From a virus (taxonomy: Duplodnaviria > Heunggongvirae > Uroviricota > Caudoviricetes): 8,702 nucleotides of DNA. Under the pieces are notes generated by a model. That model ran no database searches, was not told the origin of the DNA, and worked only from the letters and a program-made list of their open reading frames with translations. Positions within the stretch are counted from its first letter, which is position 1, and each line of letters starts with the position of its first letter. Below, in pieces: positions 1-8,702 of this stretch. A program made the translations under genes and the position numbers. The DNA lies in IMG/VR virus record IMGVR_UViG_2648501318_000014. The stretch is one strand, 5' to 3'.

Positions 1-150
1 CTCAACGGCATCGTCAAAATTATCAAAGCGCAGAGCTTCTGCGTCTTCTTCGTCAAAGAAGTCATCGTCGTGAAGCTTCACGACATAGCGGGGAAGTTTG
101 CTTCTTTGAGGGGCAGGTTTTCGTTTACGGGGTTTAGCTGAACGGGCCAT
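1..150 (-). CDS. Hypothetical protein, N-terminal 50 codons only (gene runs off the window's left edge); divergent from the tail operon
   Basis: ATG at 150-148 on the minus strand with an SD-like AGGT about 6 nt upstream; frame stays open to position 1. Translation MARSAKPRKRKPAPQRSKLPRYVVKLHDDDFFDEEDAEALRFDNFDDAVE has a basic then acidic composition typical of a real protein. The complementary + frame is also open to 138, so strand choice is uncertain. Confidence 0.4.
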   Translation of the reverse strand, partial: MARSAKPRKRKPAPQRSKLPRYVVKLHDDDFFDEEDAEALRFDNFDDAVE

Positions 151-168
151 ATAACTACCTGAAAGACA

Positions 169-1041
169 ATGACATTATCTTTTTTTATAACGGTAATTCC
201 AGACCATGACAAGCCGCAGCCGCCAGGCTGCCTACTCGGTGTTAAACCGCGCATTCTCGGCGTGCCGGGGCACGATAATAAAGCCGTTGCTACTGAGTTG
301 CTGGGCGTGGCGCAAAGCCTGCGTGGGTTTGCTTACCTGTCAGCGTATGGCTGCAAGACGGTGCAGGAGGCGATCACTTACCGTGAAAACTTCAGTCAGC
401 GTGAAGGGATGCTGATCTGGCCTGACTTTACTGGCTGGGACACGGTGCTGAATGCCGACGCAACGGCATATGCCACCGCCCGTGCGCTTGGTCTGCGTGC
501 CAAAATTGATGAGCAGACAGGGTGGCACAAAAGCCTGTCCAACGTGGGCGTGAACGGTGTCACCGGAATTTCTGCTGATGTGTTCTGGGATCTGCAGGAC
601 CCGGCAACTGATGCGGGACTGCTTAACCAGAACGATGTTACCACACTTATCCGCAAAGACGGCTTTCGCTTCTGGGGTTCCCGCTGCCTGAGTGATGACC
701 CACTCTTTGCCTTCGAAAACTACACCCGCACGGCGCAGGTGCTGATGGACACGATGGCAGAAGCGCCAATGTGGGCGGTCGACAAACCGCTGAATCCGTC
801 GCTGGCCCGCGACATTATCGAAGGTATCCGCGCCAAAATGCGCAGCCTGATCAGTCAGGGCTATCTCATTGGTGGCGATTGCTGGCTGGATGAGTCGGTG
901 AACGACAAAGACACTCTGAAAGCTGGAAAACTCACCATCGACTACGACTACACACCAGTGCCGCCACTTGAAAACCTGATGCTGCGTCAGCGCATCACCG
1001 ATCAGTACCTGGTGAATTTCTCCAGCCAGGTCAGCGCGTAA
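169..1041 (+). CDS. FI: Phage contractile tail sheath protein (P2 FI family), apparently 5'-truncated: only the C-terminal ~268 residues are FI-like
   Basis: From [11 protein letters not shown] (about nt 232) to the stop, the translation follows my recollection of P2 FI closely ([70 protein letters not shown]). The in-frame stop TGA at 160-162 and a non-FI leader ([23 protein letters not shown]) show the first ~128 residues of a 396-aa FI are not encoded here. Confidence 0.8.
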
Positions 1042-1050
1042 GGGGACAAC

Positions 1051-1566
1051 ATGGCTTTACCACGCAAATTAAAACACCTGAACCTGTTTAACGACGGGAA
1101 CAACTGGCAGGGGATCGTTGAGTCGCTGACGCTGCCGAAATTCACCCGCAAATATGAGAAGTATCGCGGTGGCGGAATGCCGGGTGCAGTGGATGTGGAT
1201 CTGGGGCTGGATGATAGTGCGCTGGACACAGAATTTTCCATTGGTGGTACTGAACTGCTGCTGTTTAAGCAGATGGGCAAAGCCACGGTGGATGGTATCC
1301 AGTTGCGCTTTACCGGCTCTATTCAGCGTGACGATACCGGGGAAGTGCAGGCCGTGGAGCTTGTGGTGCGTGGACGTCACAAAGAAGTGGATTCCGGCGA
1401 GTGGAAGACGGGCGAAAGCAACACCACCAAAGTGACCAGTACCAACAGCTACGCGAAGCTGACTATCAATGGTGAGGTGCTCTATGAAGTGGACCTTATC
1501 AACATGGTGGAAATTGTGGACGGCGTGGACCTGATGGAAGCGCACCGCAACGCCCTCGGCCTCTGA
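1051..1566 (+). CDS. FII: Phage tail tube protein (P2 FII family)
   Basis: 171-aa ORF starting 10 nt after the FI stop; N-terminus MALPRKLKHLNLFNDGNNWQGIVESLTLPK and length match P2 FII as I recall it; order FI-FII-E-T-U-D is conserved. Confidence 0.9.
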   Translation: MALPRKLKHLNLFNDGNNWQGIVESLTLPKFTRKYEKYRGGGMPGAVDVDLGLDDSALDTEFSIGGTELLLFKQMGKATVDGIQLRFTGSIQRDDTGEVQAVELVVRGRHKEVDSGEWKTGESNTTKVTSTNSYAKLTINGEVLYEVDLINMVEIVDGVDLMEAHRNALGL

Positions 1567-1577
1567 TGTATCTGAAC

Positions 1578-1595
1578 GGCGCGGGATTCCGCGCC
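1578..1595 (+). other. GC-rich stem-loop in the FII-E intergenic region (7-bp stem ggcgcgg/ccgcgcc, 4-nt loop), no U-tract; possible attenuator or RNA-stability element
   Basis: Perfect inverted repeat read directly in the sequence; not followed by a T-run, so not a classic intrinsic terminator. Confidence 0.25.
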
Positions 1596-1620
1596 AGAAC
1601 CCAATTTACAGGACAGAAAA

Positions 1621-1923
1621 ATGAGCGATAAGCAGACTGAAAAGACCATTCAACTGGATACCCCTATCAAGCGCGGTAAAACGGAAATCACCGAAATTGT
1701 GCTGCGTAAACCGCAGTCCGGTGCACTGCGCGGTACACGCCTGCAGGCTATTATGGATATGGATGTGAACGCGATGATGACCGTGATCCCCCGCATCTCC
1801 AGCCCGGCACTGACTGCACAGGAAATTGCAGAGATGGACCCGGCAGATCTCACCGCTATGTCGGTTGAGGTTGTCACTTTTTTGTTGAAGAAGTCGGTAC
1901 TTGCCGGTTTACCGACAGCCTGA
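1621..1923 (+). CDS. E: Tail assembly chaperone E (P2 gpE family)
   Basis: 100-aa ORF immediately upstream of the tape measure gene; contains the canonical slippery heptamer near its 3' end; position and size fit gpE. Confidence 0.85.
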   Translation: MSDKQTEKTIQLDTPIKRGKTEITEIVLRKPQSGALRGTRLQAIMDMDVNAMMTVIPRISSPALTAQEIAEMDPADLTAMSVEVVTFLLKKSVLAGLPTA

Positions 1924-2057
1924 CGGTTGACGATCTGGTGGCTGATATCGCCACCATCTTTCACTGGCCGCCATCCGTTACTGACGTTATGCCGCTGACC
2001 GAAGTGCTGGAATGGCGGTATAAAGCGATTCAGAGAAGCGGGGCCAACGATGAGTGA
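1621..2057 (+). CDS. E+E': Tail assembly chaperone E+E', made by programmed -1 ribosomal frameshift at 1878-1884 (join 1621..1884, 1884..2057; about 145 aa)
   Basis: T TTT TTG sits in the X XXY YYZ register of the E frame; the -1 frame is open from 1884 to TGA at 2055-2057 and overlaps the T start, as in the P2 E/E' and lambda G/GT paradigm. Predicted extension: VEEVGTCRFTDSLTVDDLVADIATIFHWPPSVTDVMPLTEVLEWRYKAIQRSGANDE. Confidence 0.7.
1878..1884 (+). promoter_or_regulatory. -1 programmed frameshift slippery heptamer TTTTTTG
   Basis: Heptamer is in the correct register relative to E codons act|ttt|ttg. Confidence 0.7.
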
Positions 2058-5000
2058 TAATAACCTGCGCCTGCAGGTCATTCTTAATGCGGTTGACAAA
2101 CTCACCCGCCCATTCCGTGCTGCACAGGCCAGTTCGAAAGAGCTGGCTGGCGCAATTCAGAATACCCGAAACAGCCTCAAAGAACTGAATAAGCAGGCTG
2201 GCAGAATTGATGAATTTCGCAAGACGCGCTCGCAACTAGCCATAACAGCCAACAACCTGAACGCAGCCCGCGAAGAGGCGGCAAAACTCGCCACACAATT
2301 TGCTGCCACTAACAGGCCAACCGCCGCGCAGGCAAAGTTATTCAGTCAGGCCAAAACACGAGTACAGGAACTTCAGCAGACCTATAACGGCTTGTTGGGG
2401 GCGGTCCAGAGACAACGTCAGGCACTTAAAGAATCAGGGATTGATACCAGACAACTCAGTAGTGCCCAGCGAGAACTTAAGAAAAATGCTGAAGAAACAA
2501 GGCAGGCACTGGAGGGCCAGCAAAAAGCACTTAAACGTCTGGGTGAACAACAGGCACGGATGAACGCTGCCAGAGAACAATACTCAAGACGGCTTGAAGT
2601 GCGCGATCGCATCGCAGGAGCCGGAGCCACTACCACGGCTGCAGGGCTGGCAATGGGGGCGCCAGTGATGGCGGCAGTAAAAAGCTATACCAGCATGGAA
2701 GATGCCATGAAAGGTGTGGCAAAGCAGGTCAATGGTCTGCGTGACGATAATGGCAACCGCACTGCACGTTTTTATGAAATGCAGGATGCCATCAAGGCTG
2801 CCAGCGAACAGTTGCCGATGGAAAACGGTGCGGTGGACTTCGCTGCACTGGTTGAAGGTGGTGCGCGCATGAACGTCGCAAACCCTGACGACAGCTGGGA
2901 AGACCAGAAACGTGACCTGCTGGCCTTCGCCAGTACGGCAGCAAAGGCGGCAACAGCCTTTGAGCTGCCAGCGGATGAACTGTCAGAAAGTCTGGGGAAA
3001 ATCGCCCAGCTCTACAAAATACCAACCCGCAATATTGAACAGCTCGGCGATGCGCTGAACTATCTGGATGATAACGCCATGTCGAAAGGGGCGGACATCA
3101 TTGATGTGATGCAACGTCTGGGCGGTGTGGCTGACCGTCTGGATTATCGTAAAGCGGCGGTGCTGGGTTCCACCTTCCTGACACTGGGCGCTGCGCCGGA
3201 GGTTGCAGCCAGTGCAGCAAACGCGATGGTGCGTGAATTGTCCATTGCCACCATGCAGAGCAAGAGTTTCTTTGAAGGGATGAATCTGCTGAAACTCAAT
3301 CCTGAAGTGATTGAAAAGCAGATGACGAAGGATGCGATGGGAACTATCCAGCGTGTGCTGGAGAAGGTGAACGCACTGCCGCAGGACAAGCGTCTGTCTG
3401 CCATGACCATGTTGTTTGGTAAAGAGTTTGGCGATGACGCGGCGAAACTGGCAAACAACCTGCCGGAACTGCAGCGTCAGTTAAAACTGACAGCGGGCAA
3501 TGATGCGCTCGGCTCCATGCAGAAAGAATCCGACATCAATAAGGACTCACTTTCTGCTCAGTGGTTACTGGTCAAAACCGGAGCGCAGAACACCTTCAGC
3601 AGCCTGGGCGAAACGCTGCGCCAGCCGCTGATGGATATTCTGTACACGGTGAAAAGCATCACGGGGGCGTTGCGCCGCTGGGTGGAAGCTAACCCGGAAC
3701 TGACAGGCACACTGATGAAAGTAGCGGCTGTTGTGGCTGCGGTTACCGTAGGCCTCGGCACCTTAGTGGTGGCGCTGGCTGCAGTGCTGGGGCCGCTGGC
3801 AGTCATCCGTCTGGGATTCTCTGTGCTGGGTATCAAAACGTTACCTTCCGTTACGGCAGCAGTAACACGAACCAGCAGCGCGTTGTCCTGGTTAGCTGGC
3901 GCTCCACTGGCACTGCTGCGACGCGGGCTTGCTTCATCGGGCAACGCAGCGGGTTTACTTACTGCGCCGTTGTCGTCTTTGCGCCGCACGGCATCACTGA
4001 CGGGGAATGTCCTGAAAACTGTAGTAGGTGTGCCGGTTGCACTGTTGCGGTCTGGATTATCCGGTTTACGTGCTGTTGCTGTGATGTTTATGAATCCACT
4101 GGCAGCACTACGCGGTGGACTGGCTGCCGCAGGCGCGGTGCTGCGAGTACTGGCATCCGGTCCGCTGGCGATGCTGCGCGTTGCCCTGTATGCCATATCG
4201 GGTCTGTTAGGTGCTCTGCTCAGTCCGATAGGTCTTGTGGTTACTGCACTGGCGGGCGTGGCGCTGGTTGTCTGGAAATACTGGCAACCCATCACCGCAT
4301 TTCTCGCTGGTGTGGTGGAAGGATTCAAAGCGGCGGCAGGTCCCATCAGTGCAGCATTCGAACCACTTAAGCCTGTGTTTCAGTGGATTGGCGACAAAGT
4401 GCAGGCGTTGTGGGGCTGGTTTACTGATCTGCTGACGCCCGTTAAGTCGACCTCTGCCGAACTGCAGAGCGCAGCGGCAATGGGGCGACGATTCGGGGAG
4501 GCACTGGCGGAAGGGCTGAATATGGTCATGCATCCGCTGGACTCCCTGAAATCCGGCGTTTCCTGGTTGCTGGAGAAACTCGGCATTGTCAGTAAAGAGG
4601 CTGCAAAGGCGAAATTGCCGGAAAGAGTGACGCGTCAGCAACCTGCGACGGTGAATGCAGACGGTAAAGTGATGATGCCATCGGGTGGTTTTCCGTCATG
4701 GGGATATGGCTTTGCGGGGATGTATGACAGCGGCGGCTATATCCCGCGCGGGCAGTTTGGCATCGTCGGTGAAAACGGGCCGGAAATTGTTAACGGCCCG
4801 GCAAATGTGACCAGCCGGAGAAATACAGCTGCACTGGCTGCCGTTGTTGCCGGAATGATGGGCGTTGCTGCCGCGCCTGCAGAGCTTCCACCGTTGCATC
4901 CTTTGGCACTTCCCGCGAAAGGCGGCGAAGCGATGGTGAGTCGTGCAGCCACTGTGCCGCCCGTTCACCGGATTGAGGCACCGACGCAGATCATCATTCA

Positions 5001-5127
5001 GACGCAGCCAGGACAAAGTGCGCAGGATATTGCGCGGGAGGTGGCACGCCAGCTTGATGAACGTGAACGCAGGCTGAAGGCAAAAGCCAGGAGTAACTAC
5101 AGCGATCAGGGGGGATACGACGCATGA
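2050..5127 (+). CDS. T: Tail tape measure protein (P2 gpT family), 1025 aa
   Basis: Long ORF after E/E'; coiled-coil-like Q/A/K/R-rich N-terminal half, long Ala/Leu/Gly-rich hydrophobic central region, Gly-rich C-terminal part (GENGPEIVNGP); position matches tape measure. Confidence 0.9.
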   Translation: MSDNNLRLQVILNAVDKLTRPFRAAQASSKELAGAIQNTRNSLKELNKQAGRIDEFRKTRSQLAITANNLNAAREEAAKLATQFAATNRPTAAQAKLFSQAKTRVQELQQTYNGLLGAVQRQRQALKESGIDTRQLSSAQRELKKNAEETRQALEGQQKALKRLGEQQARMNAAREQYSRRLEVRDRIAGAGATTTAAGLAMGAPVMAAVKSYTSMEDAMKGVAKQVNGLRDDNGNRTARFYEMQDAIKAASEQLPMENGAVDFAALVEGGARMNVANPDDSWEDQKRDLLAFASTAAKAATAFELPADELSESLGKIAQLYKIPTRNIEQLGDALNYLDDNAMSKGADIIDVMQRLGGVADRLDYRKAAVLGSTFLTLGAAPEVAASAANAMVRELSIATMQSKSFFEGMNLLKLNPEVIEKQMTKDAMGTIQRVLEKVNALPQDKRLSAMTMLFGKEFGDDAAKLANNLPELQRQLKLTAGNDALGSMQKESDINKDSLSAQWLLVKTGAQNTFSSLGETLRQPLMDILYTVKSITGALRRWVEANPELTGTLMKVAAVVAAVTVGLGTLVVALAAVLGPLAVIRLGFSVLGIKTLPSVTAAVTRTSSALSWLAGAPLALLRRGLASSGNAAGLLTAPLSSLRRTASLTGNVLKTVVGVPVALLRSGLSGLRAVAVMFMNPLAALRGGLAAAGAVLRVLASGPLAMLRVALYAISGLLGALLSPIGLVVTALAGVALVVWKYWQPITAFLAGVVEGFKAAAGPISAAFEPLKPVFQWIGDKVQALWGWFTDLLTPVKSTSAELQSAAAMGRRFGEALAEGLNMVMHPLDSLKSGVSWLLEKLGIVSKEAAKAKLPERVTRQQPATVNADGKVMMPSGGFPSWGYGFAGMYDSGGYIPRGQFGIVGENGPEIVNGPANVTSRRNTAALAAVVAGMMGVAAAPAELPPLHPLALPAKGGEAMVSRAATVPPVHRIEAPTQIIIQTQPGQSAQDIAREVARQLDERERRLKAKARSNYSDQGGYDA
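3901..4221 (+). repeat. Five degenerate in-frame tandem repeats (period 63-66 nt) inside the tape measure gene, consensus about P-L-A-x-L-R-x-G-L
   Basis: Repeats APLALLRRGL / APLSSLRRTASL / VPVALLRSGL / NPLAALRGGL / GPLAMLRVAL; the proline codons fall at 3904, 3967, 4033, 4096 and 4162. Confidence 0.5.
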
Positions 5128-5609
5128 TGATGGTGCTGGGATTGTACGTGTTTATGCTGCGCACCGTTCCGTATCAGGAACTGCAGTATCAACGCAGCTG
5201 GCGACATGCGGCAAACAGCCGGGTAAACCGTCGTCCGTCCACGCAGTTTCTGGGACCGGACAACGACATGCTGACGCTTTCTGGTGTTCTTATGCCGGAG
5301 ATAACGGGCGGCAGGCTGTCGTTGCTGGCTCTGGAGCAGATGGCAGAACAGGGAAAAGCATGGCCCCTGATTGAAGGCAGCGGCACGATTTACGGCATGT
5401 ATGTGATTGAGGGACTGAATCTGACTAAAACGGAGTTTTTCCGCGACGGTATGCCGCGCCGGATTGAGTTCACCCTGTCGCTCAAACGGGTGGATGAATC
5501 CCTGTCCGATATGTTCGGTGATCTCAGTACGCAGCTGAATAATCTGCAGGACACGGCAACATCTGCCTTAAGTGATATCAGTAAAACGGTGGGAGGGCTG
5601 CTGTCGTGA
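5124..5609 (+). CDS. U: Tail protein U (P2 gpU family)
   Basis: 161-aa ORF whose ATG overlaps the T stop (ATGA at 5124-5127); size and position match gpU. Confidence 0.85.
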   Translation: MMMVLGLYVFMLRTVPYQELQYQRSWRHAANSRVNRRPSTQFLGPDNDMLTLSGVLMPEITGGRLSLLALEQMAEQGKAWPLIEGSGTIYGMYVIEGLNLTKTEFFRDGMPRRIEFTLSLKRVDESLSDMFGDLSTQLNNLQDTATSALSDISKTVGGLLS

Positions 5610-6706
5610 ATTTCAGCTCTGAACTGCTTAACAAAGGCAACAAAACTCCCGCATTCAGCATCAGTATTGAGGGCAGGGATATCAACACTGTGCTGGATAA
5701 CCGCCTGATGAGTTTGACTCTGACGGACAATCGGGGCTTTGAAGCGGACCAGCTTGATCTGGAGCTGGACGACGCCGACGGAAAAATCGTGCTGCCGCGC
5801 CGTGGTGCGGTCATTACGCTGGCGCTGGGCTGGAAGGGGCAGCCGCTTTTCCCTAAAGGGGCATTCACGGTGGACGAGATTGAACACACTGGCGCACCGG
5901 ACCGCCTGACTATCCGGGCGCGAAGTGCTGATTTTCGTGAAACGCTGAATACCCGCCGTGAAAAGTCGTGGCACAAGACCACCGTTGGGGAAGTGGTGAA
6001 GGAAATAGCCTCGCGGCATAAGCTGAAGATGGCACTGGGTAAAGACCTGTCGGATAAGCCCGTGGAACATATAGACCAGACCAATGAGAGTGACGGCAGT
6101 TTTCTGATGCGGCTGGCGCGCCAGTACGGTGCTATTGCGTCGGTGAAAAATGGCAATCTGTTATTCATCCGGCAGGGACAGGGTAAAAGCGCCAGCGGTA
6201 AACCACTGCCGGTGATCACTATCACACGCAAGGACGGCGACAGTCACCGCTTTACCCTGGCAGATCGCGGAGCCTACACGGGCGTAATTGCCAGCTGGTT
6301 GCATACCCGCGAACCCGCGAAGAAAGAAAGCACTACGGTGAAGCGTAAGCGCAGAACGAAGAATCAGAAGAAAGAGCCGGAAGCGAAGCAGGGCGATTAC
6401 CTGGTGGGTACGGATGAAAACGTGCTGGTACTCAATCGCACCTATGCCAATCGGAGTAACGCCGAACGGGCAGCGAAAATGCAGTGGGAACGCCTGCAAC
6501 GCGGCGTTGCGTCATTCTCGCTACAACTGGCGGAAGGGCGGGCAGATCTCTACACGGAAATGCCAGTGAAAGTCAGTGGCTTTAAACAGCCGATAGATGA
6601 TGCGGAATGGACCATTACGACTCTGACACATACCGTCAGCCCGGATAATGGTTTTACGACCAGTCTTGAGCTTGAAGTGAAGGTTGATGATCTCGAAATG
6701 GAATGA
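5606..6706 (+). CDS. D: Tail protein D (P2 gpD, late control D family)
   Basis: 366-aa ORF with GTG start overlapping the U stop (GTGA at 5606-5609); position immediately upstream of ogr as in P2. Confidence 0.85.
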   Translation: MNFSSELLNKGNKTPAFSISIEGRDINTVLDNRLMSLTLTDNRGFEADQLDLELDDADGKIVLPRRGAVITLALGWKGQPLFPKGAFTVDEIEHTGAPDRLTIRARSADFRETLNTRREKSWHKTTVGEVVKEIASRHKLKMALGKDLSDKPVEHIDQTNESDGSFLMRLARQYGAIASVKNGNLLFIRQGQGKSASGKPLPVITITRKDGDSHRFTLADRGAYTGVIASWLHTREPAKKESTTVKRKRRTKNQKKEPEAKQGDYLVGTDENVLVLNRTYANRSNAERAAKMQWERLQRGVASFSLQLAEGRADLYTEMPVKVSGFKQPIDDAEWTITTLTHTVSPDNGFTTSLELEVKVDDLEME

Positions 6707-6743
6707 TTCTTTACAATGGAGAACTTTTAAGTTTGAAAAATGG

Positions 6744-6763
6744 AATAATGCGATATCATTATT
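6744..6763. promoter_or_regulatory. Dyad-symmetric element aataatgcgatatcattatt upstream of ogr; possible operator or promoter-associated site
   Basis: 7-nt arms aataatg / cattatt around a GATATC core, about 35-50 nt upstream of the ogr start; function not established. Confidence 0.2.
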
Positions 6764-6796
6764 GTGAATTTAGCAAAAATGGGGAGAACTCGAAAA

Positions 6797-7015
6797 ATGA
6801 TGATTTGCCCACTGTGTGGAAGTGCCGCCCATACTCGCAGCAGTTTTCAGGTATCTTCATTGACCAAAGAGCGTTACAACCAGTGCCAGAACATTAACTG
6901 CAGCCATACTTTTGTTACCCATGAAACTTTTGTTCGTTCGATTGCAACGCCAAAAGAGTCAAATCCGGTTCAGCCGCATCCTCATAAATTTAAACAGGTG
7001 GGTTTGCCGATTTAA
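6797..7015 (+). CDS. ogr: Ogr/Delta-type C4 zinc-finger late transcription activator, 72 aa
   Basis: MMICPLCGSAAHTRSS...KERYNQCQNINCSHTF matches the CxxC...CxxxxC Ogr zinc finger; SD GGGGAG about 10 nt upstream of the ATG at 6797; 72 aa as in P2 Ogr. The ORF-track start at 6764 adds a non-homologous extension and is less likely. Confidence 0.85.
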   Translation: MMICPLCGSAAHTRSSFQVSSLTKERYNQCQNINCSHTFVTHETFVRSIATPKESNPVQPHPHKFKQVGLPI

Positions 7016-7078
7016 ATGGCGACATAACTACATGATTTAAAACTATACTTTTCTATAAGTTGAGGTTAAATTAACAAT

Positions 7079-7256
7079 GCCTGACGTTAGCGGGGATTTA
7101 TCCCCACTCCGTAGATATGTAGTTTGTCGCTTTGCGACTGCGGACCGATTACCTGATTGCCATGTAATCGGACGCCGACTTGTTAAGCTTTCTGGGCTAA
7201 CTGGTTGTTATTTTTTATTTAGTTAGGGCCATGCGCTTGCGCTAAGAGACGTCAGG
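7079..7256 (+). ncRNA. Candidate structured noncoding RNA upstream of the RT operon (retron msr/msd-like), bounded by an imperfect inverted repeat
   Basis: Left arm gcctgacgttagcg (7079-7092) pairs with right arm cgctaa-gaga-cgtcagg (7240-7256): 13 bp with a 4-nt bulge. TTAGCG followed by a G-run sits just inside the left arm. Internal hairpins at 7092-7105, 7126-7138 and 7145-7171. No ORF. An AT-rich promoter-like stretch lies upstream and an SD follows the right arm. Confidence 0.3.
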
Positions 7257-7276
7257 TATCTATGGAGGAACAAGTT

Positions 7277-7450
7277 ATGGATACAAACGAACTTGGCTTA
7301 GTTAAGGCGCGTGTTGAACTGATCACCGCTATGCTCAAATGCGCAACCGCGTTTGTTGGCTTAGTTGGTGCGGTTTACGCCGTTCTTAACATGGCCTTCA
7401 ACTACAGCAATTTAACTCATGACAATAGAAGTTCAAAGGTGGGAAGATAA
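7277..7450 (+). CDS. Small hypothetical membrane protein (57 aa, one predicted TM helix); candidate effector or partner of the RT
   Basis: SD GGAGG at 7264-7268, 8 nt before the ATG at 7277; product MDTNELGLVKARVELITAMLKCATAFVGLVGAVYAVLNMAFNYSNLTHDNRSSKVGR has a ~25-residue hydrophobic core; its 3' end overlaps the RT start by 32 nt. Confidence 0.4.
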   Translation: MDTNELGLVKARVELITAMLKCATAFVGLVGAVYAVLNMAFNYSNLTHDNRSSKVGR

Positions 7451-8192
7451 ATTTGAGATTAAGCCCGGGGTTTGGGTTTATGTCCCAAGCGTTGAGGCAC
7501 GTAAAGTCGGAGGGAAGATACTTCAGGCTGTCAGAAACAAGTGGATTCCGCCACTCTATTTTTACCATCTAAGAACTGGTGGGCATCTTAAAGCTGCCAG
7601 ATTACACTTAAAAAGTGATTTTTTTGCCGTTGTTGATATTAAACAATTTTTTCAGTCAACGAGCCGTAGTCGTATCACCCGTGATCTAAAGAGCTACTTC
7701 ACCTATTCTCAAGCGCGGGAAATCTCAACATTTTCAACTGTAAGAAACTTGTCCCATAGTCCACATAAGCATGTCCTCCCTTTTGGTTTTGTTCAATCTC
7801 CAATACTTGCAACCCTCTGCTTAGATAAAAGTTATTTTGGTAGCTTACTACGCCGATTGAACAAACATCATGATCTCAAGCTAAGTGTGTTTATGGATGA
7901 TGTGATCATCTCGTCAAACGATTTGGCCCAATTACAAGCGGCTTACGACGAAGCACTAGTGGCAATGCGCAAATCTGGTTATCAAGCCAACATGAGTAAA
8001 ACTCAGGCACCATCGTCAAAGATTAGCGTGTTTAATTTAACTTTGAGTAAGGGAGTTATGAAAGTCACATCTCAGAAAATGAGTGACTTCCTGATTGATT
8101 TCTATTCAAGCAATTATGAGCCGCACAGAATAGGGGTCAAAAACTACGTCGAAGCTGTTAATCCAGGGCAAGCGAAACTCTTTAAGTTGTAA
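7419..8192 (+). CDS. Compact reverse transcriptase (257 aa) with retron-type motifs
   Basis: Motif 1/2-like YVPSVEARKVGGKIL; NAxxH-like AARLH; motif A FAVVDIKQFFQS (Asp codon 7635-7637); motif B LPFGFVQSPILATL; motif C VFMDDVII (Asp-Asp codons 7896-7901); KVTS in the position of the retron VTG motif. Frame is closed by TAA at 7413-7415 just upstream, so no longer N-terminus is possible. Confidence 0.85.
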   Translation: MTIEVQRWEDKFEIKPGVWVYVPSVEARKVGGKILQAVRNKWIPPLYFYHLRTGGHLKAARLHLKSDFFAVVDIKQFFQSTSRSRITRDLKSYFTYSQAREISTFSTVRNLSHSPHKHVLPFGFVQSPILATLCLDKSYFGSLLRRLNKHHDLKLSVFMDDVIISSNDLAQLQAAYDEALVAMRKSGYQANMSKTQAPSSKISVFNLTLSKGVMKVTSQKMSDFLIDFYSSNYEPHRIGVKNYVEAVNPGQAKLFKL

Positions 8193-8261
8193 TTGCGATC
8201 GCATGTAGTAGCAACTGGGCTTGACTGAATGCCTGCCGCCATTTTGCCGCCACTACCAAAG

Positions 8262-8289
8262 AAAAAAGGGCTACGCTTTCACGTAACCC
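8262..8289 (-). terminator. Intrinsic terminator of ssrA (minus strand); may also terminate the convergent RT operon
   Basis: On the minus strand: 8-bp stem GGGUUACG/CGUAGCCC (one G-U pair), 6-nt loop, then U6 (plus-strand aaaaaa 8262-8267), starting 12 nt after the ssrA 3' end. On the plus strand the same hairpin is followed by a T-rich stretch. Confidence 0.45.
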
Positions 8290-8300
8290 ATTGATTTATT

Positions 8301-8663
8301 TGGTGGAGCTGGCGGGAGTTGAACCCGCGTCCGAAATTCCTACATCCTCGGTACTACATGCTTAGTCAGTCTTTACATTCGCTTGCCAGCTGCGGACGGA
8401 CACGCCACTAACAAACTAGCCTGATTAAGTTTTAACGCTTCAACCCCAGGCAGGGCTTCCACGCGATCTCTTTTGGGTTTGACCTCTCTTGATCCCCGTC
8501 CTAAGAGCGGAGGCTAGGGAGAGAGGGCTCTAAGCAGGTTATTAAGCTGCTAAAGCGTAGTTTTCGTCGTTTGCGACTATTTTTTGCGGCTTTTTACGAG
8601 GCCAACCGCCCCTCGGCATGCACCTTGGGTTTCGCAAATCCCGTCGAATCCAGAATCAGCCCC
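8301..8663 (-). ncRNA. ssrA: tmRNA (transfer-messenger RNA, SsrA), complete 363-nt gene
   Basis: Reverse complement begins GGGGCTGATTCTGGATTCGACGGG and ends GGTTCAACTCCCGCCAGCTCCACCA; the tag reading frame GCAAACGACGAAAACTACGCTTTAGCAGCTTAA (ANDENYALAA-stop) is at 8542-8574. Matches enterobacterial ssrA as I recall it. Confidence 0.95.
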
Positions 8664-8677
8664 AATGTGTAAAGGTA

Positions 8678-8683
8678 AGTATA
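8678..8683 (-). promoter_or_regulatory. Putative -10 hexamer (TATACT on the minus strand) of the ssrA promoter
   Basis: TATACT lies 14 nt upstream of the mature tmRNA 5' end, consistent with a short processed leader; the -35 region would be at or beyond the window edge. Confidence 0.3.
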
Positions 8684-8702
8684 CCAGATTTATGAGCGCC
8701 AT

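Follow-up and report, generated by a model that had tools for sequence, protein, structure and literature searches.

Introduction

Integration in ssrA, the tmRNA gene, has been reported for SopEΦ and Fels-2 (PMC3448106; PMC10107115, Table 1), and these sources cite Pelludat et al. 2003 and Williams 2003 for the use of this site by the two phages in Salmonella. The genomes of SopEΦ and Fels-2 (Felsduovirus) have the P2/186-type gene order, with ogr as the last core gene before attR, and their attachment arms carry 186-type repeats; the arm-binding consensus of 186-type integrases is given as tgccGCCActt (PMC3448106). CP4-57 of K-12, an element with a P4-type integrase, also uses and regenerates the ssrA 3' end, leaves a defective pseudo-3' end (psaA) beside ypjA, and on excision inactivates tmRNA (PMC10107115). 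Table 1 of the same paper lists the allele CGCCAGC-----CA for other ssrA elements and has the displaced ssrA fragment intact in Salmonella P2-integrase elements.

Defence genes of P2-like phages are described as lying in fixed variable slots (Rousset et al. 2022, PMC9122126; PMC13586616). In PMC13586616 the int-att slot is explicit, as a minor P2 defence hotspot with ~3% of P2 systems; the ogr-attP slot is not singled out in the section of that paper covered here.

Type VI retrons (Retron-Vpa2, -Eco12 and -Sen3) are operons in the order ncRNA, SP, HTH, RT, with a structured ncRNA, a hydrophobic protein of ~55 aa and a short reverse transcriptase (RT) of the clade 3 lineage. The HTH gene, of the Cro/CI type, is present in ~78% of them.

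The DNA analysed here, called the window throughout, is a stretch of 8,702 nt that runs from the end of an IS91-family element through P2-type tail genes to ssrA. With a probability of roughly 0.93, judged from sequence comparison, positions 8233-8345 are the ogr-side junction (attR, B-O-P') of a Fels-2/SopEΦ-type, 186-like Peduoviridae prophage that was integrated at the ssrA 3' end by tyrosine-integrase recombination. The site type is already well known, and the locus is another instance of it. Gene order, core, arms and 186-type repeats are those of SopEΦ and Fels-2, including ogr as the final core gene ahead of attR. The present host is E. coli, with this type of phage also found in Klebsiella, whereas SopEΦ and Fels-2 are phages of Salmonella. 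The ogr-attP interval holds a 1.2-kb RT cassette, in place of the ~160 bp of SopEΦ; the attP-int slot of matching genomes holds a dCTP deaminase gene where SopEΦ has orfY; and the displaced ssrA fragment of three genomes has a 5-nt deletion, unlike its intact counterpart in Salmonella. Escherichia phage Cartapus (NC_070909, Elveevirus) shares the layout ogr-[cargo]-attP-[cargo]-int, and has a contiguous attP with 86% identity over 234 bp, but its cargo differs: a 160-aa 'exonuclease'/BRCT-like gene on the ogr side and a 401-aa 'RES' protein on the int side. CP4-57 differs in its integrase family, in the sequence that it places downstream of ssrA, in the length of its core (~14-15 nt, against 46 here), and in the position of int, which adjoins ssrA in CP4-57 and lies at the far end of the element here.

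Results

The tmRNA gene and its surroundings

A single tmRNA gene was found in the window by ARAGORN (minus strand, tag peptide ANDENYALAA). Rfam RF00023 matched the same interval, 8301-8663, over model positions 1-374 of 374 without truncation (295.8 bits, E = 1.8e-121). Over its 363 nt the gene does not differ from that of K-12 or of a strain whose site is empty. The CCA of the 3' end lies at 8301-8303 (+ strand) and faces the P2-type tail/ogr block; smpB lies just outside the window, on the opposite side of ssrA from the prophage, in the annotation of E. coli CV839-06. A preliminary description of this DNA had placed an intact minus-strand ssrA against the prophage, with its 3' end toward it, in the range 8262-8702 (ssrA plus 39 nt on either side). 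Both programs agree on the complete gene and the orientation was confirmed: an intact tmRNA gene stands at one junction with its 3' end facing the element, as at an ssrA-type site. Coordinates of all features are collected in Table 1.

Window positions 235-8702 are 99.99% identical to CV839-06, and 6700-8702 are 100% identical. The RefSeq order of genes in that genome is tail sheath, tube, gpE/E', tape measure, gpU, gpD, ogr, 57-aa hypothetical, reverse transcriptase, ssrA, smpB. Phage homology begins at 235, and only 235-8702 matches complete E. coli genomes. The segment at 1-238 is multi-copy on plasmids, beside an IS91-family transposase, and its junction with the tail sheath gene, which is without its first ~122 codons (5' third), was absent from all complete E. 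coli genomes searched. Since the IS91-family end replaces the 5' part of the sheath gene, the prophage of the source strain is disrupted. A CAAG target at this junction was considered and dropped, the junction lying at ~235-238 and not at CAAG. The far end of the prophage was read in complete genomes of other strains (CV839-06, ETEC1731 and KK19-02). For the CV839-06 locus (L001), the window coordinate equals the L001 coordinate minus 34159.

Table 1. Features of the window, by position.
Feature	Position	Strand	Basis or remark
End of IS91-family element	1-238	-	Abuts tail sheath gene
ogr, late-gene activator, last core gene of the P2-like prophage	6797-7015	+	RefSeq annotation of identical sequence; Pfam Ogr_Delta
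Cargo cassette in the ogr-attP slot	~7016-8232	+	ncRNA region, small protein gene and RT
Conserved non-coding region, predicted to be structured	~7040-7260	+	Fold z-score, conservation
Small hydrophobic protein gene, 57 aa	7277-7450	+	ORF
Compact reverse transcriptase, 257 aa	7419-8192	+	Pfam RVT_1, 2e-21
P' arm of the junction (the junction is attR on the P2 map), phage-derived	~8233-8299		attP match begins at query 84 = window 8233
Two direct repeats, GCCGCCA-TTTT-GCCGCCA, predicted 186-type Int arm sites	8235-8252	+	Consensus match
Predicted intrinsic terminator for ssrA, phage-supplied	8258-8289	-	Terminator scan
att core, 46 bp common to attP and attB	8300-8345		Four-way alignment; attP contiguous in free phages
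Stretch of the core matched exactly by the distal copy, as a 38-bp direct repeat (CV839-06, ETEC1731)	8308-8345		
ssrA (tmRNA), complete, 363 nt	8301-8663	-	ARAGORN and Rfam
Chromosomal DNA upstream of ssrA (B arm)	8664-8702	-	smpB beyond the window edge

The att core, attP and the empty site

An empty attB (W2-5), attP (phage Cartapus) and both CV839-06 junctions were placed in a four-way alignment. attP and attB are identical over 46 bp and diverge completely outside this block; as aligned, the four sequences are the textbook Campbell picture. The block consists of the final 45 nt of ssrA plus one A, reads ATGTAGGAATTTCGGACGCGGGTTCAACTCCCGCCAGCTCCACCAA in the ssrA sense, and contains the T-arm inverted repeat GCGGG/CCCGC. 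The chromosomal share of ssrA is its 5' 318 nt, the last 45 nt being the recombination core held in common with the phage. The preliminary description had expected attR at 8193-8320. Its placement of the junction at the ssrA 3' end stood, and its limits did not, for the core lies inside ssrA at 8300-8345 and the P' arm at 8233-8299.

For attP, the two prophage ends were joined in silico (402 nt) and used as a query. Query positions 84-317, which cross the join, were contiguous in Escherichia phage Cartapus, Salmonella phage SEN8 and Yersinia phage MLG42; further matches fell at the termini of the RE2010, SopEΦ and Fels-2 records, and in Fels-2 the attP is annotated. The conserved attP of ~234 bp is made up of the P' arm (8233-8299), the core (8300-8345) and the P arm (L001 7905-8025).

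For attB, a synthetic empty site of 470 nt was assembled from ssrA and the flank of the distal copy (ATCATGATTGG...). It was present as a single 470-nt piece, at 99.8% identity, in 1434 of 5426 complete E. coli genomes. The comparison with prophage-free strains that had been proposed beforehand thus has ssrA directly joined to the distal-repeat flank. The accompanying proposal, that the ssrA 3' end serves as attB and is regenerated, agrees with the observations that attP copies the last 45 nt, that ssrA is unchanged and that empty sites break at the block.

The phage-derived arm downstream of ssrA

The P' arm has conserved counterparts in attP of the free phages Cartapus, SEN8, MLG42, RE2010 and SopEΦ, and stands in place of the native DNA downstream of ssrA. 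An identical ssrA is found with three different downstream sequences: native, CP4-57 and P2-type. The repeat pair of the arm, GCCGCCATTTTGCCGCCA at 8235-8252, occurs once in the window (0 expected by chance). In most of the related loci scanned, including a prophage with a non-ssrA core, this pattern is confined to the att arms; it is present on both arms in Cartapus and Kp4845-2, and the P arm of CV839-06 carries a one-mismatch variant. Int would be expected to bind the GCCGCCA repeats, given their match to the published consensus.

Between these repeats and ssrA lies a predicted hairpin, GGGTTACG-TGAAAG-CGTAGCCC (22 nt, 8289-8268), followed by a T-run to 8258, which is probably used as terminator by ssrA.

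The cassette between ogr and attP

The RT of the cassette has the catalytic motif FMDD. Its best PADLOC match was retron RT_VI (6.6e-18, weak at 63 bits), and NCBIfam retron_St85_RT scored 49.5 bits against a cut-off of 235. A profile of the RT family, compared with solved structures (PDB), matched retron RTs exclusively (~1e-11). No relatives of the RT were found by a single-protein scan of species-representative genomes; by profile scan the family is widespread in Proteobacteria, all members being ~245-260 aa long. PADLOC did not recognise the cassette as a complete system.

The small protein and RT genes overlap in the window. Among ~50 related loci inspected, most have a small ORF (40-65 aa) that precedes the RT gene and ends at or overlaps its start, and in most of their products a hydrophobic helix precedes a motif of the NMAFNY or KVVNY kind. 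The 57-aa protein of the window had no match in PADLOC, Pfam or NCBIfam. Upstream of the small ORF, a stretch of 220 nt folds more stably than shuffled controls (z = -3.45); it is highly conserved in relatives with proteins of ~81% identity (4 compensatory pairs among 3 sequences), and Rfam gave no match for it. No HTH gene lies between the small protein and RT genes in the window or in the ~50 relatives inspected, and the cassette had no HTH match in Pfam or PADLOC. In its order of putative structured ncRNA, hydrophobic protein of ~55 aa and short RT the cassette resembles type VI retrons, from whose operon it differs in having no HTH gene; on these comparisons it is described as type-VI-like and is not filed as a member of type VI.

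By its position the cassette is cargo of the phage and not a separate islet. The preliminary description had called the RT module the terminal cargo of the element, unless an attachment core between ogr and the module were to make it an element of its own. No such core was found by BLAST or by 19-mer search, and the interval from ogr to the P' arm, in which the module is situated, belongs to the phage. Because no core separates ogr from the RT module, the module is terminal cargo and not a tandem islet; with the P' arm interposed between it and ssrA, it falls on the phage side of attP.

That the cassette is instead an integrative islet of its own, a small element that entered ssrA in tandem and separates the tmRNA gene from the P2-like prophage, is highly improbable. 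Tandem arrays at ssrA are real: FDN-24 has a P4-type island between prophage and ssrA, and CV839-06 keeps a relic of an array at L001 3631-3706. The cassette also varies between otherwise similar phages. An islet reading is, however, opposed by the content of the interval itself, where neither BLAST nor a 19-nt search tolerating ≤3 mismatches gave an ssrA core from ogr to the RT gene, the cassette is without an integrase (no integrase ORF between ogr and ssrA), and the P' arm and Int arm repeats stand between cassette and ssrA. In the whole window a second ssrA core was likewise absent (BLAST; 19-mer search, ≤3 mismatches). Other prophages also speak against it. Thirteen Klebsiella prophage records with a D-ogr-RT module 99.3% identical to that of the window are delimited exactly between the repeats and enclose the cassette. 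A related cassette (87% identity, first part) fills the same slot, bounded by ogr and a 186-type arm repeat, in another P2-like prophage, which lies beside ybjL and near which no tmRNA or tRNA gene was found. In FDN-24 the later P4/CP4-57-type island (SIR2, ankyrin, AlpA) lies in the regenerated ssrA, outside the RT cassette; homology to the window ends at 8314, and the cassette stays with the P2 remnant.

The distal repeat and the second cargo slot

The 38-mer GCTGGCGGGAGTTGAACCCGCGTCCGAAATTCCTACAT is the sole long repeat joining both sides of the prophage in CV839-06, where its copies lie at L001 42467-42504 (window 8308-8345) and L001 7867-7904, 34.6 kb apart, the distal copy adjoining ypjA. 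ETEC1731 has the same arrangement. In KK19-02 all 45 nt of the ssrA 3' end are present in the distal copy, which reads TGGTGGAGCTGG...CCTACAT. A distal junction of this phage type was present in 94 of 5426 complete E. coli genomes. The direct repeat of the ssrA 3' end that was to be sought at the other boundary is therefore present, as 38 exact bp in CV839-06 and ETEC1731 and as 45 nt in KK19-02. The expectation of a plain repeat at the other prophage end needs one amendment: in the matching complete genomes the repeat is not beside int, and lies 2.3 kb from it with a second cargo gene, for a dCTP deaminase, between them.

This attP-int slot holds an anti-phage dCTP deaminase in CV839-06, ETEC1731 and KK19-02 (PADLOC 4e-145; NCBIfam 424 bits, above the cut-off of 400) and unrelated genes in Cartapus, SopEΦ, Kp4845-2 and EcPNK004. 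The int-side cargo proteins of Cartapus, SopEΦ and Kp4845-2 had no PADLOC or Pfam match. The ogr-attP slot is empty in SopEΦ (~160 bp from the ogr stop to the end of the record); Cartapus and KK19-02 have a 160-aa gene there. This slot may belong to the interval 'downstream of GpL' of PMC13586616.

The position of the repeat could also be read as that of a separate deaminase islet, with the true phage end between the deaminase gene and int and the whole a two-element array. The 2.3-kb distance to int, the defence gene within it and the usual adjacency of integrases to att would agree with such an array, which we nevertheless consider very unlikely. A repeat scan of the 380-bp interval between the deaminase gene and int gave no ssrA-like core, and the 120 bp beside the distal core, which include an arm-type repeat, show homology to the P arm of attP in free phages. 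Moreover, another cargo gene occupies the attP-int position in Cartapus, SopEΦ and the Klebsiella prophage, and the position is the minor P2 defence hotspot already described (PMC13586616).

Integrase and overall reading of the junction

Int carries the Pfam domains Int_N and Phage_integrase. It is 91% identical to Int of SopEΦ, 93% to Int of Cartapus and 95% to Int of Kp4845-2, a Klebsiella prophage with the same RT module. Mere coincidence, in which the prophage used another, non-ssrA target and came to lie beside ssrA by chance, would have adjacency alone and the many different integration sites of P2-family phages (PMC3448106) in its favour, and can be set aside, for attP and the ssrA 3' end are identical over 46 bp, empty sites break exactly at this block, and the integrase belongs to an ssrA-specific group.

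The reading preferred here is integration of a Fels-2/SopEΦ-type prophage at the ssrA 3' end. attB, attP, both junctions, the identity of the integrase and the position of the cargo, each read by sequence comparison, fit the following course. Recombination between attP and the ssrA 3' end by the tyrosine integrase most probably placed the prophage in the chromosome. attP carries the last 45 nt of ssrA and one further base as an exact copy; because attP copies these 45 nt, mature tmRNA is unaltered by integration. Downstream of ssrA all is now phage DNA, with a new predicted intrinsic terminator followed by the pair of putative 186-type Int arm sites, and the displaced native 3' fragment lies at the far end of the element, beside ypjA. 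The RT cassette, between ogr and the P' arm, is part of the phage genome and would be packaged and mobilised together with it; the interval from the P arm to int is a second cargo slot, occupied by the anti-phage dCTP deaminase in the matching complete genomes. The crossover presumably lies within the core, and the junction may still be active in the IS-disrupted source prophage.

The deleted distal fragment and the history of the locus

In CV839-06 the 38-mer of the distal copy is followed by CAATCAT, not TCCACCA. This was weighed as evidence against a simple Campbell junction and rejected, since alignment with K-12 psaA, the empty site and KK19-02 resolves it as a 5-nt deletion. The displaced ssrA fragment of CV839-06, ETEC1731 and ETEC1747 is without TCCAC and reads CGCCAGC-----CA. 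Among complete genomes the deletion occurs in these three only, and the same three are the only ones 100% identical to the window over 6700-8702; the deletion leaves them a distal copy of only 38 bp, and their two sites are an imperfect pair. KK19-02 has the same integrase and dCTP-deaminase proteins and an undeleted distal copy.

It is conceivable, though we hold it for doubtful, that the deletion penalises loss of the prophage, because excision would either rebuild an ssrA without its acceptor end or be blocked, and the defence cargos would be held in place. If the crossover lies 5' of the deletion, excision would yield an ssrA lacking the acceptor end (CGCCAGC-----CAATCATG) and trans-translation would be switched off, as with CP4-57; if the deletion damages a core-binding site, excision would be blocked. 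On either course, were the idea true, the two cargos that flank att, the dCTP deaminase and the type-VI-like SP-RT cassette without an HTH gene, would be retained.

The relic at L001 3631-3706 of CV839-06 combines a P' arm of the Fels-2 type, a 14-nt piece of the ssrA end and an arm like that of CP4-57, and by this composition is the signature of an older tandem array. ssrA of E. coli is a palimpsest of successive integrations.

Implications

The view of ssrA as an integration hotspot is unchanged by these results. The boundaries of the element are now fixed to the base, and prophages of this kind can be delimited by the ssrA core followed by the 186-type arm repeat. The results also explain spurious second 'tmRNA' annotations at distal junctions. 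The terminator predicted for the tmRNA gene would now be supplied by the phage and not by the chromosome. Both flanks of attP act as slots for exchangeable cargo, and the RT cassette, like the dCTP deaminase of relatives, travels inside a phage of the P2 family that has passed between E. coli and Klebsiella.

RT cassette and IS421 insertions

The RT cassette comprised a structured, conserved leader, a 57-aa hydrophobic protein and a 257-aa RT. It resembled type VI retrons in overall make-up but lacked an HTH, and it looks like an HTH-less relative of these systems. The RT family to which it belongs was widespread in Proteobacteria, and in most RT-family loci inspected a small ORF was present at the equivalent position, usually with a NMAFNY/KVVNY-type motif. 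At least seven complete genomes (e.g., 5735, NMBU-W12E19, GPEC1201 and FDN-24) carried an IS421 insertion in the interval from ogr to the RT module. At the two loci checked (GPEC1201 and FDN-24), the insertion lay exactly at window 7093-7104, with a 12-bp target duplication; the putative ncRNA, upstream of the small-protein gene, has this site within its first hairpin (GCGGGGATTTATCCCCAC). The RT cassette may be disabled or deregulated by IS421 insertion.

Cargo genes and the IS91-family end

Outside the window, at the far end of the same prophage, the interval from the distal att copy to int contained an anti-phage dCTP deaminase gene, and defence cargo was thus present on both flanks of attP. 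The contents of the two attP-flanking slots assorted independently among related phages. Three unannotated genes in the classical P2 hotspot may constitute a further defence system. At the start of the window, the tail sheath gene was adjoined by an IS91-family end ~122 codons into the gene. This IS91-family segment was present in multiple copies on E. coli plasmids. The junction itself was found in none of the complete E. coli genomes, indicating that the source prophage was disrupted or truncated.

Coordinates of features in the window and in compared E. coli loci (L001, CV839-06; L007, FDN-24; L098, EcPNK004)
Feature	Coordinates	Description
IS91-family element end	window 1-238	start of 121-aa ORF and terminal ~90 nt
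RT cassette	window 7040-8192
IS421 insertion site	window 7093-7104
57-aa hydrophobic protein gene	window 7277-7450	overlaps RT start
Relic	L001 3631-3706	Fels-2-type P' arm, 14 nt of ssrA 3' end and CP4-57-like right arm
Distal att copy	L001 7862-7904	displaced ssrA 3' fragment missing 5 nt (CGCCAGC-----CA)
Anti-phage dCTP deaminase gene	L001 8100-9833
Three unannotated genes	L001 17480-20156	231, 215 and 173 aa; between replication gene and portal gene
P4/CP4-57-type island	L007 8963 onward	SIR2, ankyrin-repeat and AlpA genes
RefSeq 'tmRNA'	L098 3066-3242	177 nt

Displaced ssrA fragments and layered integrations

The 5-nt deletion in the distal att copy of CV839-06 was shared by ETEC1731 and ETEC1747; in KK19-02, which carries the same phage, the distal ssrA copy was intact. 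The deletion allele has been reported for other elements at ssrA, whose excision inactivates tmRNA (PMC10107115). The RefSeq 'tmRNA' at the distal prophage junction of EcPNK004 consisted of the ssrA core fragment and phage arm, and is therefore an annotation artefact.

In FDN-24, the P4/CP4-57-type island had integrated into the ssrA previously regenerated by the P2-like prophage. Only a remnant of that prophage was present, beginning inside the tape-measure gene, and homology to the window stopped at 8314, 14 nt into the ssrA end. The CV839-06 relic, placed between ypjCB and a pinH fragment, points to an older tandem array; it also suggests that ancient island DNA encompasses the ypjA region itself.
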